This document shows positions 2,518 through 55,753 of a stretch of DNA of 64,000 nt, one piece after another. Every line of letters begins with the position of its first letter. Within the stretch, counting starts at the first letter, position 1. Origin of the DNA: Octopus sinensis (Eukaryota). Position numbers and translations under genes: made by a program. The notes under the pieces were generated by a model, which was given only the letters and a program-made list of their open reading frames with translations, was not told the DNA's origin and ran no database searches. Location of the stretch: assembly GCF_006345805.1 (NCBI RefSeq), contig NC_042998.1, positions 62,496,001 to 62,560,000 of the forward strand, read 5' to 3'.

Positions 2518-2557
2518 TATTCTTGATAAGTCACATCATGACGAAACCGTTTGAATA
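2518..2557 (+). ncRNA. Minimal type I hammerhead ribozyme-like motif, U3:A8 variant, in a decayed PLE-like segment
   Basis: tattc-TTGATAA-gtca(catca)tgac-GAAA-ccgttt-gaata: 5-bp stem I, 4-bp stem II, stem III mutated relative to accggt. Confidence 0.6.
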
Positions 2558-14864: not shown

Positions 14865-16159
14865 AAATAAAGAAGGAAAATGCACATAGTTTACATCATT
14901 TTAATATATTTTTAAAATGTGTTTTATAAATGAAAGAGTATTGTATTTGTCGACCGGTTTCGCTTTCGCATTTCATGACGTTGAAATTATTGAAATTATT
15001 GTAATTACAATAATTATTATGATAATTATTATAATTATTGTAATGCTTGTAATTATTATGGACTTCTCTCCTTGTTTGAATAGGAATTCCGAAGCTTCCT
15101 GCATGCTAGGGCATGTTCCACAGTTTGGATGTCACATTTTTTAACCTCTAACATACTAAGGGAAACAAAACGTAACACCACATCTCAAAACACTGCTGTA
15201 TATATATATAAACTAACAGCCCTAGAAATAATAAAGCATGCAATACTATTGTACAAAATTTACCTATGCTCACTCGGTATCCAAAAATGAACAACATTCT
15301 GAAAACAAATAATCAATCTTAAAAAGCAACACAAATCGCCGAAAAGACTTCTGATAAATGCAAAGATTTACACAACAACCACGATACCAATAGTTAAAGA
15401 ATGTGGACGTCCAAACTGGGGAACATGCCCCAACATGCAGGAAGGCTCAGAAATCCCTATTCAAACAAGGAGAGAGGTTTACAATTAAAACCAATTTCAT
15501 TTGTACCTCCGAGAATCTAATTTATGTTATAACTTGTTCCGCCTGTGGGCATGACTATATAGGACAGACAAGTATGACACTTAGACGGGGGACCACAATA
15601 CATAAGGAACAGATATGTTTACCACAGTACAGACAGATTCCTTTGAGTGAACACATAGAGAGATGTGCGGGTAATATACACAGTTTTCCCCATCTGCCAG
15701 TGCAAAGAACCAATTTCTGTGCAAGAGCGTTTAAATACAGAAAATTTATTTATTGAAAAATAGAGAACACGCCTAAATATGAACGCGTTTTTGATCACAG
15801 TATATATTTTAATTCATGTTTACATGCACATCACAGTAGATATTTCATCTCACTGCTTTAGCTTTTGAGTTTGTGTATGTTTATTTACCTCTCCCCCTAA
15901 AATGAGCATTTACCCCCACTGTCCCAAATAATGACGATTACCAATTACCTCCCTTAGATTTTTCTACCACTTGATTCATTTCATTCACAAATCCCCATAC
16001 ACAACATGGACTAAAATCTTCTTAAGAAAATACGATATTACAATAATTTCAATGTCATGATTAGCGACAGCGAAACCGGTTGACAAACACAATACTATTT
16101 AACTAACAAAATATATTAGAAAATATATTAAAATTATGTAAACAGTATACGTTTTCCTT

Positions 16160-16389: not shown

Positions 16390-16870
16390 TTAATCCAAAC
16401 ATGAAAACACAAAGAGAAAAGACAACAACGCGAGGACGTGGAACAAGTATAGTGTTATCTGACAGTCAGGAAAGGAAAGAAAGAAAGAGGACTTAACATT
16501 TCGAACGGAGCTCTTCGTCAGAAACATAGAAAAAGGAAAGATCCAAGGAAGGGAAAACGGAGGAAAAAATCACCAGCGATACACACGCGGTCACATATTG
16601 AATGACCGGAAAAGAATGGGTGAAGAAAAAGTTCTTTCAAAGACAGGAGAGTGCAAGAGAAAGAGGTATGTGTGTATGAGTGGGTATGTGCGTGCGCGCA
16701 AGTCTGCGTGTGCGTATGTGTGTGTGTGTAATGATAGGACGTGTGTCTCTGTATGTGTGTGTGGTTGTGGCTGATAATCTGTGTGTGGTTGGGTTTAGTA
16801 TCGTTTAAGGACATAGGAGGAATTTATAGTAGGAGTGGCTCCTGTGGTGTGTCTACCTACACATGTGCGT
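16390..16870 (-). mobile_element. PLE-type element 3' end with a canonical hammerhead motif at 16492-16524
   Basis: Minus strand ttt-CTGACGA-a-gagc(tcc)gttc-GAA-ATGT-T-aag. A related terminal fragment lies at 58140-58235. Abuts (TA)n. Confidence 0.6.
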
Positions 16871-18219: not shown

Positions 18220-18259
<40 letters not shown>

Positions 18260-18319
18260 TAAGGAGATGTACTTGCATAGCGAGTGACCTGATCTGAGAT
18301 CGTGTGCTGGAAAGAAAAC

Positions 18320-18530
18320 AATTGCAGCGTGGAAGGTGTTTAGAAGCCATTTAAGAAACACACAAAACCGTTAGATTCACTTCAACGTTAAATTTAATTT
18401 GTCAAAATATTTTCGTCGCTTTGAAACCGCGACCTGTTCACTGACAAAGCTTCATGCTGCATCTGTTTTGCATCTGTTCCGGTTTTGTGTGTTTCTTAAA
18501 TGGCTTATAAACACCTTCCACGCTGCAATT
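18320..18530. mobile_element. Short fold-back element with ~50-bp inverted arms, PLE-type
   Basis: aattgcagcgtggaaggtgttt...cacaaaaccg (18320-18370) is inverted at 18480-18530. Another arm copy is at ~55470-55540. Confidence 0.75.
18398..18448 (-). ncRNA. Minimal type I hammerhead motif, G3:C8 variant
   Basis: Minus strand tttgtca-GTGAACA-g-gtcgc(ggtttcaaa)gcgac-GAA-AATATT-T-tgacaaa: perfect 7-bp stem I, 5-bp stem II, palindromic stem III. Confidence 0.7.
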
Positions 18531-18732
18531 ATTTATATAAATTAAATTAGAGATAAAACCACTAGTAGGCAACTCAAACAGTGATAGACATAAAACCAAA
18601 ACATAAAAAACAAAAAATAAATATAATTAATATAATATATAATATATATATAAAATATAAAATTGAAAATTTAAATTATAAATTTAAAACATTTTAAAAT
18701 TTATATCTTTAAATTTTTATATTTTAAATTTA

Positions 18733-18816: not shown

Positions 18817-19412
18817 GTATATATGTAGCAGAATAGGCAAAAGAAAGTTCTTGGTTCAGTATTATATATTTGAAAAAATTAGTAGAGATGGCTTTCATCC
18901 CCCAAAATCCATCTCTGCTAATTTTTCAAATATATATATACGCATATATTTGAATGGATGAAAGAAATATCGTCAGAAAATGAAGACAGCAGCGGCTATA
19001 TATCTAAAATCTTTGACATTAATGATTGAACACGTAAAAACTAAAATTCCTGCCCCAAGGTCATCGTGAAGCTAAACTAAAACATACGCGCTCAAGGTGT
19101 CGTGCAGTGGAAGCGATCCCGGAATGACGAAACTATACCTTCGTGAATTTGATTTAGGAATACATTTTTGAGAAAGAAGACAAGAACGTTAGCGTCCCAC
19201 ATAATTGTTTGTGAATATGTCTTCCCTTCAAATAATTTTACAACATGAACAATATATAAAAGGCCAGGTCTTGTTCCGTTTTTCATCTTATTTATTCTAA
19301 TTTTAAAAGGCAACACACACTCTCTCTCTCTCACACACACACATTCATCTGTGTGTGTATATACATATATTTATATATACACTCACACACATATGTATAT
19401 GTATGTATGTAC

Positions 19413-33176: not shown

Positions 33177-34320
33177 CAAGACGAAGAGCGCGATTCGACT
33201 GTTAAAGATATTTTACTGGTTGAACGATATTTAACAGTAAGTCTGCTTGTTCAAAATAAGAGGTGATAAAAATTCAAAATTATAGAAAACTAAATGTAAA
33301 GTATGAACGAGAGTAACCAGCGTCCACACGTTGATGGAATGACATCATCAGTTTTTATAATTTCAATTTTATAACAGGCGAAAAGAAAATGACAGAAAAA
33401 CGAAGATAAAAAAGACATAAAAAAGAGGAAAGAAAAATGAAAAAAAAAGAAGAATATCTAATCAAACAGTTTTGTATAAATTTGATGATATTCTCCTGTC
33501 ATTTTATTCATTCCTCTATTTCTGACTCCAAGAAAACGAACATTGGAGTATCTGGACGCTGTACTTTGAAAAACAACCGCAAGAGAAGTAAGCCCTGTTC
33601 ATTGTGCAACAACATGACTCAAGTGAATTCCATCATGAATCATAACAGAAATGTTATGACTTATACAGAAAGTGGGACATGTAGAGATTCCCATTTGGTG
33701 TACCCGGCAGAATGCACGAAACAACTTGATTTATGTTGGTTGTACAACAGAACAATTAAACAAAAGGTTTAATGGGCATTGATTCAACGTCAGGCACAAT
33801 AACAGTAGTTCGACAGAACTTGCCGAACATTTCGTTTCAAACGGCTGTAATTTTGAAAAAGACTAGAATGTGCATATTATCAGAAAATATTTCGAATCTG
33901 CTTCACTTTCACCTCTCAGAATGCATGAGGAATAATATGTTTGCGGGTTATTAACATCACGCCCTGGAGGAATGAATAAAAGGACAGGAGAATATCATCA
34001 AATTTATAAAAAACTATTTGAGTAAATATTCTTTTCCCTTTTCATTTTTATTTCCTCTTTTCTTCTATCTTTTTTTTCTGTCTTTTTTTCTGTCTTTTTC
34101 TTTTCGCCTGTTATAAAATTGAAACTTAGAGACTGATGATGTTATTCCATTAACGTATGGACGCTGGTTGCTCTCGTTCATACTTTGAATTTAAATTTCT
34201 ATAATTTCGAATTTTTATCTCTTCTTATTTGGAACTTGACAAAGACAGACTTACTGTCGAAATATCGTTCAACCATTAAAATATCTATTACAATCAAATC
34301 ACGCTTTTCATCTTGATTGT
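33174..34320 (+). mobile_element. Penelope-like element relic: GIY-YIG remnant between ~240-bp inverted repeats
   Basis: Across frameshifts: C..C...CRDSHLVY.AEC...YVGCTTEQLNKRFNGH...ELAEHF...PGGMN. 33174-33410 is inverted relative to 34090-34320. Confidence 0.85.
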
Positions 34321-34340
34321 TTACATTTAAATATAATAAC

Positions 34341-34399
<59 letters not shown>

Positions 34400-34402
<3 letters not shown>

Positions 34403-35338
34403 GCTATAAAACAAAAGCTATAAAACAAATGAAATCCAAACTAAAAATAGAACAGCAACGAGCCATGATAAAACGATGGCAAGAAAAACCCCTTCATGGT
34501 AAATACTGCATTAAACTAAACGCAAAAGAAATAGACAAAGACAAATCCCAGCAATGGTTGAGAAGCTCAGGACTCAAAGCAGAAACAGAGGGATTTTTAA
34601 TTGCAGCACAAGACCAAAGCCTCCCCACCAGAAATTACCAAAAACATGTAATGAAAAGAAATATTACAAGTAACTGCAGAATATGTGGAGATGGACAAGA
34701 AACAATAAATCATATTATCTCTAGCTGCCCAGTCCTGGCTAAGAAGGAATATATTCACAGACATGACAGAGTTGGAGCCTACATACATTGGAAGCTATGC
34801 CAACATTATGGAATAACAACAGAAAAAAGATGGTATAGGCACACACCAGAAAAGGTCACAGAAAACGAGAAAGCAGCCATACTCTGGGATATGCCGATAC
34901 ACACAGATAGAGAAATTAAGGCCAACAGACCAGATATAGTTGTCAGAGATCATGAAGAAAAAAAATGCTTTCTAATTGATGTATCAATACCGGCAGATGA
35001 CAACGTGTCTCTAAAAGAAATGGAGAAACTCTCAAAATACAAAGACCTGGAAATAGAGGTAACTAGAATGTGGAACCTGAAAACAGAAACAATTCCTATC
35101 ATAGTAGGTGCATTAGGCATGATAAAAAAATATTCAGACAAATACATAACAAAAACACCAGGACTTACAAACACATATAACATACAGAAAATTGCACTAC
35201 TAGGCACTGCACACATCCTACGCAGAACACTTTCCATACAATAACCATCAGAGCATCACAACAAATCACAGCACATACCCAAGGTACACAGAGCTGCGCT
35301 CGGTAGTGAAGTGAAAGCACGCTATAAAAATAAAACTA

Positions 35339-35342
<4 letters not shown>
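34400..35342 (+). mobile_element. R4/Dong-clade non-LTR retrotransposon, 5'-truncated, with open CCHC plus restriction-like endonuclease region (ORF 34429-35244)
   Basis: 271-aa ORF with CRICGDGQETINHIISSC, RHD, RPDIV..D, IDVS and EKLSKY motifs. Short 3' UTR. Flanked by (AAT)n on both sides. Confidence 0.92.
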
Positions 35343-35400
<58 letters not shown>

Positions 35401-35414
35401 TAATAATAATATTA

Positions 35415-35910
35415 AAATATGATAAATAGAACTGGTATGCGGATACAAATGTTACGGCAAAACGATCAACTACCTTTTATTTATGGATGACCTAAAACTA
35501 TACGCTACAAATGACAAACAGCTGGAAACACTATTAAAGACAGTTCATGGATTTACCAAAGAAATAGATATGAAATTTGGATTAGAAAAATGCGCCAAAG
35601 TAACACTGAAAAGAGGGAAACTAGTGAAGAGCAGAAACATCACACTAGATAAAGCCAATGAAGTAAGAGAATTAGACCAAAGCCCAACTTACAAATATTT
35701 AGAAATCCATGAACTAGACATGACACAACACACACAAATGAAAGAGAAAATAAAGAAAGAATACTATAGACGAGTTAAATCAATACTGAAAACTGAACTC
35801 AATGCTAAAAACAAGATAATAGGTATTAACACTTTAGCCGTCCCAGTTATAAGTTACAGCTACAATATCCTTAACTGGATACTAAATGAACTAATTAGAG
35901 GAACTAAGTG
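35415..35910 (+). mobile_element. R4/Dong-like reverse transcriptase fragment
   Basis: INYLLFMDDLKLYA...FGLEKCA...YKYL: RT domains 5-7 with FMDD. Confidence 0.85.
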
Positions 35911-35949
35911 AATTAAAAGAGGAAGAAAAGCAAAGGAAACACAGTCCCT

Positions 35950-38925: not shown

Positions 38926-38949
38926 ATATTTAAGAGATGAGGATTTATG

Positions 38950-39136
38950 TACATTATTTACATTTTACGGATATTTGTCCTCATCCTGTTTGTTAATACA
39001 ACGTTTCGGCTGATATACCTTCCAGTTTTGAAATTTCCCCAAGACACCTGATGAAGGCTTGAGGGTATATCAGCCGAAACGTTGTGTTAACAACAAACAA
39101 GTTTAAGACAAATATCCGTCAAATGTAAATAATGTA
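38950..39136. mobile_element. Fold-back PLE-type element with a canonical minimal hammerhead at 39043-39088 (+)
   Basis: Arms of about 70 bp. gacac-CTGATGA-a-ggcttg(agggtatat)cagcc-GAA-ACGT-T-gtgtt. Confidence 0.8.
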
Positions 39137-39234
39137 AATGAAACTAAATATAGCAAAAATATTGCCAGGTTATAAGAATATATAGTAAAAAGAGAATTGA
39201 AAAATCACCTCAAAGCATTAAAACAAATAAAAAT

Positions 39235-49199: not shown

Positions 49200-50022
49200 T
49201 TAGTTAGTTAGTTAGTTAGTTAGTTAATTTGTCTCAAAAGCAAATAGCAAGGCCATGTAGGGGGACATGGAGTTAAGTACAGGGTGGTGTTCATGTAAAG
49301 AGTTCAGGCCACTTGAGGTCAAGGGAGGCTTTGAACAAAGCGGTCGTCGGCATCTTCACCATCTCGTCTGGCAGCTTGTTCCACGGATCCGCAACCCGGA
49401 CGGAGAAAGCTCCTCTCCTTCGATTGAGATGAAATCGTCGCAGGTAGAGCTTTTCGAAATGACTCCGCAGCCGACGCTCTGGAGCAGGAGTGAAGAACAG
49501 CTCTTTCGAGAGGTTACACTTTCCGCTTATGATGTTGTGGGCGAGAATGAGATCACCACGGCGGCGGCGTTTTTCAAGAGAATAAAGGTCGAGCGTCCTC
49601 AGCCTTTCTTCGTAGGACAAATTTTTGAGACCATGAACCATGCGGGTAGCCAGCTTCTGGACTCTTTCGAGATGCTGTATGTCTTTGAGGAGATAAGGAG
49701 AAGAGGCTTGAATCCATACTCCAATATGGGTCTCACCAGCGTGACATAGAGTGGTAGGAATATGGCTGCTGTGAGCATTCCGAATGACCGTCGAATCAAG
49801 AACAGAATTCCGCGTGCTTTGTTGGCAGCATGGACGCACTGGGCCGAAGGCGAAAAGGAGGAATCCACCAAGATACCTAGGTCCTTTACCTGATCGGTCC
49901 TCTCCAGCAGCAGACGACCCGGCTCGAAATCAAGTTGAGTTGCAGGAGGAGAGCCGACAGGCAGATGACAGCACTTTGACACGTTCAGACACAGGTCCCA
50001 ATCGTTAGACCACTTCCAAATT
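49200..50022 (-). mobile_element. CR1-clade LINE 3' fragment (relatively young)
   Basis: VKDLGILVDSSFS...LYVTLVRPILEYG / LERVQKLATR...SYEERLRTLDLYSLEKRRRRGDLI with one frameshift. (TAAC)n tail at 49200-49225. Confidence 0.92.
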
Positions 50023-50661
50023 TGGTGGCGTTATATCGTATAACGTTTTTTTAAACAATATTAATAGCGTTCTGTCTATCGCTATACGAATCCATCATTT
50101 TTTGCTAAAATGTCGTATTGACGAGTTTCGTTTTTTCACTTTCCCGAAGAGAAAATTGCATTGTTTATACCTTTTATTCTTTTGAATAGTATCAGTGGAA
50201 TTTTCGAAACATATGTAGAAAGTAAAAATACTTGTTTAAACCTGCGTTAACTCCATTTTTTATTCATATATATATATATAATATATATATATAATATATA
50301 TATATATATATTCCTTATGCATTCCAAAACCGAGCTACATATTTTGACGTATGGGGTATCAAAAGGTTCAGTACTATTTCGGCTACCAATTAAACTTAAT
50401 TTCCATTCACATATTTGCATTTCAACAATTTAATATATTTTCCATAAATCAACTATCGTAAACATTTTATACAATAACGTCGCATTTTCTATATGTCTGT
50501 GTACCTTAAAAGACATCAGTCATCAAGACACACACCATCACTCACTCACTCTATCTCTCTTTCTCACCCTCTTTCTCTCTCACATACACACGCGCACGCA
50601 CACACGCACGCACACACACACGCACTCACAAACACACGCACACACACACACACACAACACA

Positions 50662-55456: not shown

Positions 55457-55753
55457 CATACATATATGTACAATTGCACCGTGAAAGGTGTTTATAAGCC
55501 ATTATAAACACACAAAAACCGTTGGATTTACTTCAACATTTAGTTTAGATGTTTTTGGGGGCAAGCAGATCGAACCGTCATAAGTGTAACTGCCCGAAAA
55601 GGTCGTGACTTCTGGTACTTGATTGAGGAAAAAAGGCCACGAATTTTTGCCCGTCCTTCTAATTGTTGTTTCTCTTGTCCGCCTTTGTATCGTCTATGTA
55701 TCCGAATGTTTTATTGTCCTCTATTGCATTTCTGTTCCATTTATATATATATA

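Follow-up and report, generated by a model that had tools for sequence, protein, structure and literature searches.

The 64,000-nt stretch of Octopus sinensis DNA analysed here (the window; contig NC_042998.1, positions 62,496,001 to 62,560,000) raises the question of how a hammerhead ribozyme motif that lacks the canonical letters C3 and G8 is to be understood. In the standard hammerhead numbering scheme, which is followed throughout, G8 is a central catalytic position, and C3:G8 is part of nearly every search descriptor. The window copy carries G3 and C8 instead. A sequence-only reading had placed a hammerhead with this swapped pair at 18398-18448, describing all helices as perfect and the core as GUGAACA. 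The motif itself is confirmed and resides on the minus strand, which had been left unstated. The 7-bp stem I, the 5-bp stem II and the core letters also stood, but stem III (AAUAUU) is unpaired in the monomer and available in a dimer only, and an extra G at 18434 had been omitted.

Stem I consists of 18448-18442 paired with 18404-18398 (seven Watson-Crick pairs), and stem II (GUCGC/GCGAC, five pairs, 9-nt loop) of 18433-18429 paired with 18419-18415, closed by G10.1:C11.1. The core strand runs from G3 (18441) through U4, G5, A6, A7 and C8 (18436) to A9 (18435), and the extra G is situated between A9 and stem II. Beyond stem II, G12 A13 A14 (GAA, 18414-18412) are followed by AAUAUU (15.1 to 16.1) and by U17 at 18405, and cleavage is predicted between U17 and 18404. 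All of U4, G5, A6 and A9, G12, A13 and A14, A15.1:U16.1 and H17 are thus found in a three-way-junction layout in which stem III exists only as a dimer. Positions 3 and 8 are complementary, in agreement with the Watson-Crick requirement at this place, and going by published structure-function work they would pair. An alternative register with a canonical CUGA is absent from the sequence.

A motif scan open to every Watson-Crick pair at 3:8 yielded, over 100 local dinucleotide shuffles, 0.02 motifs per window with stems of seven and five pairs and none once the 6-nt palindrome was added. The hammerhead motif is real and beyond chance. Rfam gave no match at gathering threshold anywhere in the window and, on 18255-18560, none to a hammerhead family at E<=10; its models do not cover the minimal type, as a motif with canonical core at 39048 was missed as well. 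In the monomer fold (z -2.3, 6 of 200 shuffles as good) stems I and II form and the palindrome is left unpaired. Both stems are predicted in a solo and in a fold-back transcript alike, with pair probabilities mostly above 0.85. AAUAUU is pairable only between two copies, and the domain-swapped dimer (-25.4 kcal/mol), if forced, gains just 0.6 kcal/mol over two monomers (-24.8 kcal/mol); the minimum-energy dimer as computed (-30.6 kcal/mol) is a different, non-hammerhead pairing. The features of the locus and the further hammerheads of the window are compiled in the table.

Table. Coordinates of the G3:C8 hammerhead, of the copies of its repeat and of further minimal hammerheads in the window.
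Feature	Positions	Strand	Basis
Minimal type I hammerhead motif, G3:C8 variant	18398-18448	-	Motif scan, fold and sequence
Core strand G3 U4 G5 A6 A7 C8 A9, with the extra G ahead of G10.1	18434-18441	-	Sequence; family state from public runs
Self-complementary AAUAUU (15.1-16.1), stem III in dimer only	18406-18411	-	Scan, fold, dimer computation
Copy A of ~200-nt repeat: hammerhead preceded by about 13-15 nt and followed by 134 nt	18264-18463	-	Depth and loose ends in public runs
54-nt extension, in copy A, lacking in copy B and at 55470	18264-18317	-	Sequence comparison
Locus-specific junction, short duplication between head-to-head copies	18463-18479		Sequence; near-zero depth
Copy B, inverted, 5'-truncated, second fold-back arm, then AT-rich sequence	18480-18530	+	Arm and copy comparison
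Third copy, 5'-truncated, 3' end as copy B, adjoining TA microsatellite, without hammerhead	55470-55547	-	Sequence comparison
(TA)n tract flanking the copy A 3' end, likely insertion target	18221-18256		Sequence
U3:A8 minimal hammerhead	2518-2557	+	
A3:U8 core, 2-bp stem II, palindrome ACCGGT, in ~150-nt inverted-repeat arm	16053-16092	+	
Sibling of the A3:U8 motif, core broken	~14950-14990	-	
Canonical C3:G8 minimal hammerhead	~16485-16525	-	
U3:A8 minimal hammerhead in inverted repeat 33091-33516/33967-34400, core of other arm deleted	34232-34275	+	
Canonical C3:G8 minimal hammerhead, arms 38944-39142, fold-back layout like the G3:C8 locus	39043-39088	+	

Public sequencing runs bear on whether the swapped pair belongs to this copy or to its family. 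The stretch is present in 20 of the 24 runs listed, under five organism codes, and four of them were compared at 80% likeness and a 3% share: a set of RNA reads (X23, added by its species label, no RNA set having been listed with the stretch) and three sets of contigs (X1, X2 and X8). Depth is very high from ~18264 to ~18461 in all four, bearing out the earlier suggestion of a repeated family, and almost nil at the junction in every run, which defines a repeat unit of ~200 nt. Summed word depth reaches millions, against 4-54 for long single pieces, and is no copy number. Variant positions were taken from the best 40 of 131 rows, which can be located, alongside complete counts by variant kind. 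None of the 40 rows falls at 18441 or 18436. In all four runs no C>G place is unaccounted for, and canonical C3 therefore stays below 3% in each of them. Since X8 has no G>C place at all, G8 is below 3% there; 2, 2 and 7 unlocated G>C places exist in X1, X2 and X23, respectively, and G8 is excluded in one of the four runs only. Minor A3 or U8 variants are compatible with the 40 of 131 rows listed. Among the 33 variant places of X8, 26 are located, none of them in the core, and the other seven are C>T or G>A changes for which 14 unshown CpG positions are available. No variant reaches 3% in this run at U4, A6, A7, A9, A13, A14, the palindrome or U17, and transitions at G3, G5, C8 and G12 are compatible with its counts. 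Loose ends around the motif are, among the 24 of 1006 listed, most conspicuous at 18448, outside the core.

With C3 below 3% in four of four runs and G8 excluded in one of four, G3:C8 is a family state and not decay of the window copy, as the sequence-only reading had held. Variation inside the motif amounts to six listed rows, three in loop II, one in stem I (A1.3→G giving U·G, 13-29%) and two at opposite positions of a single stem II pair (C11.4→U and G10.4→A, both at 5-7% in contigs and, respectively, at 29% and 17% in RNA reads). The latter two changes (18418 and 18430) fall on CpG sites and their counts are unphased, so that they give no more than a hint of covariation of stems I and II, also at issue in that reading. 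X1, X2 and X8 share variant frequencies and one piece despite their different organism codes; the runs probably stem from one species or close kin and therefore speak for fixation in the family, not for deep-time conservation. For a family propagated from a few master copies, fixation alone is no proof of catalysis.

The motif had further been assigned to a short fold-back element. Two arms exist indeed (18316-18370 and 18480-18534, 55 nt, 96%), but the element is the ~200-nt unit, and the fold-back is an arrangement of this locus, in which a copy is joined by a truncated one in inverted orientation, a known layout of Penelope-like elements (PLEs). The additional copy announced near 55470 was recovered as well (85% over 80 nt); it breaks off shortly before the hammerhead. 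Copy B and the 55470 copy share one 3' end, 114 nt from where stem II begins, and copy A ends 54 nt further; both of these 3' ends lie next to AT-rich or (TA)n sequence. 5' truncation, an inverted partner, a one-sided tail and AT-rich or microsatellite targets, i.e. the traits of PLE copies, are all present. Inverted truncated copies with a one-sided tail have been described for PLEs (PMC8557442), and a tail is also reported in PMC11167929. According to the latter text, the ORF of the anole PLE PAc begins at stem II, and RT is initiated 111-118 nt inside it and a second time after another 30-40 nt; both strands of AT-rich DNA are cut, and uncut RNA serves as the main template. The 114 nt that separate the first 3' end from stem II here compare with these 111-118 nt, while the tail is longer, 54 nt versus a published 30-40 nt (PMC8557442). 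Copy A is likely a solo pseudo-LTR-type piece of a PLE, judging from its architecture, and the 54-nt extension likely corresponds to the PLE tail that separates two starts of RT.

Some smaller observations concern the surroundings of the copies. Several of the joints listed (best 15 of 123, alongside the best 12 of 72 between-letter rows) connect 18414-18463 with the second arm through breakpoints that differ from the one here, with depths of ~40-120. They may be read as other loci with inverted partners; such joints are unreliable in repeats. Head-to-tail hammerhead units do not occur among the three window copies. The contigs contain one back-joint, from 18448 to 18393 with four letters between, at depths of 431 (X1) and 3227 (X2); it may mark tandem ~60-nt units that comprise little more than the hammerhead, which would favour dimers. 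The start of the 54-nt tail (18303-18316, minus strand) is a pyrimidine tract ending in AG and resembles a splice acceptor. PLEs keep 5' introns; a spliced joint is not among the best 15 of 123 joints listed. Right of the fold-back, 18540-18595 features high contig depth and no RNA reads, and a separate repeat family abuts the element there.

The extra nucleotide at 9/10.1, G10.1:C11.1 and the palindromic 15.2-16.2 are all traits of the minimal hammerheads of PLEs (min-HHRs). These min-HHRs have been described as type I motifs with the same extra nucleotide, G10.1:C11.1, a dimer-requiring palindromic helix III and low activity, occurring mostly as solo copies with some opposite-strand pairs and with natural covariation at 3:8, there in the form of U3:A8 (Cervera & de la Peña 2014, PMC4209133). 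The octopus motif differs in its G3:C8 core and longer stem I (7 bp), and no PLE ORF is linked to it here. Its extra nucleotide is G, versus A, C or U in the published consensus, with one listed PLE motif having G. The text covered of PMC4209133 names no G3:C8 core, and the rows covered of its supplementary alignment contain C3:G8, U3:A8 and U3·G8 and no G3:C8. A natural compensatory change at 3:8 is likewise named by Perreault et al. 2011 (PMC3088659), in the text covered as U3:A8, not G3:C8. Identical swaps (C3G/G8C) are known as laboratory mutants. In PAc, single C3G or G8C exchanges kill the hammerhead and the double exchange partly restores cleavage (PMC11167929), a partial rescue by the double swap is also stated in general terms (PMC8495972), and a remark without data in PMC3884650 has the G3-C8 variant more active with G17 than with C17. 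In the octopus the same swap occurs naturally and prevails across a genomic family. A report of natural G3:C8 was not found in the literature searched, with figures and some supplements outside the reach of the search, nor in a cephalopod-directed literature search. The surprise is moderate, because the swap partly works in the laboratory.

Membership in the PLEs is based on architecture, since no RT could be linked. Neither an RT nor a GIY-YIG ORF was found in association with the G3:C8 family, and the window copies of the element contain no ORF. An ATG-led frame at 18350-18231 gave no hits in a search for relatives. The single match of a 37-aa frame at 18370-18260, to a tandem-repeat protein (31-38% identity by summed repeats), was discarded as spurious. 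Family-specific DNA patterns gave no matches in metagenome contigs, viral contigs or prokaryote genomes. Two generic scans of viral contigs for G3:C8 returned at least 120 loci each (estimated about 122 and about 1400), and of the 240 loci listed a single one has a stem I of >=5 and a stem II of >=3 pairs, which we regard as chance level, so that natural G3:C8 is not confirmed there.

By its layout the motif is a natural, family-wide G3:C8 variant of the PLE min-HHR type, with activity predicted. With a probability of about 0.6, we consider G3:C8 the normal state of a minimal type I hammerhead in an abundant ~200-nt family that is likely a non-coding PLE pseudo-LTR fragment and for which self-cleavage is predicted to be weak and to require a dimer or protein. 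Pseudo-LTR pieces would be copied by internal RT initiation on uncut RNA, giving short copies that retain the whole hammerhead, and fold-backs would arise through head-to-head placement of a second, truncated copy. Selection likely kept the 3:8 pair in the master element, because the swap leaves intact the Watson-Crick pair by which the 2'-OH of nucleotide 8 is positioned. Activity would be low and dependent on a dimer or on protein, and U17 would avoid a G3:C17 trap pair.

The competing explanation that deserves most attention, though we give it clearly less credence, is a founder effect on a dead ribozyme: an inactive master gained both changes, and the family was amplified as insertion needs no cleavage, the fold perhaps being kept as a protein-binding or passive structure. 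Several facts agree with it. The PAc hammerhead cuts only in the presence of protein, and its cleavage is dispensable for insertion in vitro (PMC11167929); Naiad PLEs thrive without canonical hammerheads (PMC8557442); PLE min-HHRs cut poorly even with a canonical core (PMC4209133); and the octopus copies keep the whole motif, hence their template was uncut. It is opposed by the nature of the changes, two specific transversions that restore a Watson-Crick pair in a motif whose other core letters and 12 stem pairs are intact, by the pairing of 3:8 in all six hammerhead motifs of the window (see below) and by the partial activity that the engineered swap retains (PMC8495972, PMC11167929).

A self-contained non-LTR retrozyme or SINE, cycling via a small circular RNA from hammerhead cleavage and ligation and not arising as a by-product of autonomous PLEs, appears improbable. 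Like the published non-LTR retrozymes (PMC7229834; bioRxiv 10.64898/2026.07.22.740005), for which an origin from PLE pseudo-LTRs has been proposed, the octopus family consists of short non-coding hammerhead repeats. The ~200-nt unit, for which no ORF link was found, has a fairly sharp 5' boundary near 18461, and the joint from 18448 to 18393 could reflect tandem hammerhead units. In the covered parts of these sources, by contrast, animal retrozymes form tandem arrays with canonical type I motifs and circular RNAs; here, all three copies are solo or inverted, and the motif is of the minimal PLE type. The RNA reads also speak against such a cycle. In X23, 1768 of 12.9 million records fall on the stretch (137 per million) and ~600 reads span 18438-18449; the reads split about equally by first-mate strand and 77% continue into unlike sequence. 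This pattern fits dispersed copies inside host transcripts and is uninformative on cleavage: RNA starts or ends do not pile up in this one RNA run, and a fragmented cDNA library need not reveal cleavage. Hardly credible, and largely refuted by the public runs, is a MITE or a miRNA-like fold-back whose terminal inverted repeats would measure 55 nt and in whose loop the motif would be incidental. The 96% complementary arms could be taken for one, as could sub-threshold matches to plant miRNA hairpin models (40-45 bits, far under gathering scores of 94 and 211), which were rejected as generic. Against it, homology extends past one of the arms in both directions (18264-18461), the junction is specific to this locus, further joints use different breakpoints, the copy at 55470 stands alone and no terminal inverted repeats are common to the copies at both ends.

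Returning to the preferred reading of G3:C8 as the normal state of a PLE-type family, we find that the motif has company. A relaxed descriptor with letters 3 and 8 free, set after two of its hits (2523 and 16057) had already been seen, detects six minimal hammerheads in the window: 2523+ (U:A), 16057+ (A:U), 16521- (C:G), 18441- (G:C), 34236+ (U:A) and 39048+ (C:G). All six are Watson-Crick paired at 3:8 and together cover all four pairs (two C:G, two U:A, one A:U, one G:C), against a background from 300 shuffles of 0.017 paired and 0.017 unpaired motifs per window. The chance that four non-C:G motifs all pair is ~0.004 from base composition. The motifs at 16057, 34236 and 39048 reside within inverted-repeat pairs, too, and the inverted siblings of the 16057 (A:U) and 34236 (U:A) motifs have broken cores. 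The A3:U8 motif is located ~300 nt behind a frame (15394-15753) with a GIY-YIG-like match that stays below the Pfam cut-off (E=0.1) and for which no longer relative was found. If conserved in its own family, it would represent a fourth pair type.

A natural G3:C8 pair in an abundant animal repeat is a third pair type carried by an element that spread, and it implies that descriptor-based hammerhead counts are too low. Combined with U3:A8 and possibly A3:U8 in one 64 kb, it offers a natural allelic series for the question of whether PLE hammerheads must cut, and how fast. It is tempting, if rather doubtful, to go further and regard the four 3:8 pairs as a dial by which the PLEs of this genome set their cleavage rate, slow G3:C8 being favoured since uncut RNA is the insertion template and leading to a very high copy number. 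Were this true, censuses based on CUGANGA would miss most families (four of the six window motifs are not C3:G8), including some elements described as hammerhead-less.

A tRNA scan of the stretch and a scan for bacterial promoters and terminators came back empty. A short fold-back with ~80% complementary arms, in which motif scans detect no hammerhead, is located 330 nt downstream (18859-18941). Retrotransposon coding remnants are found at 34240-35911 and 49291-50030; one of their frames matches Pfam zf-RVT (E 5e-6), and the frames next to it are presumably RT-like by their resemblance.
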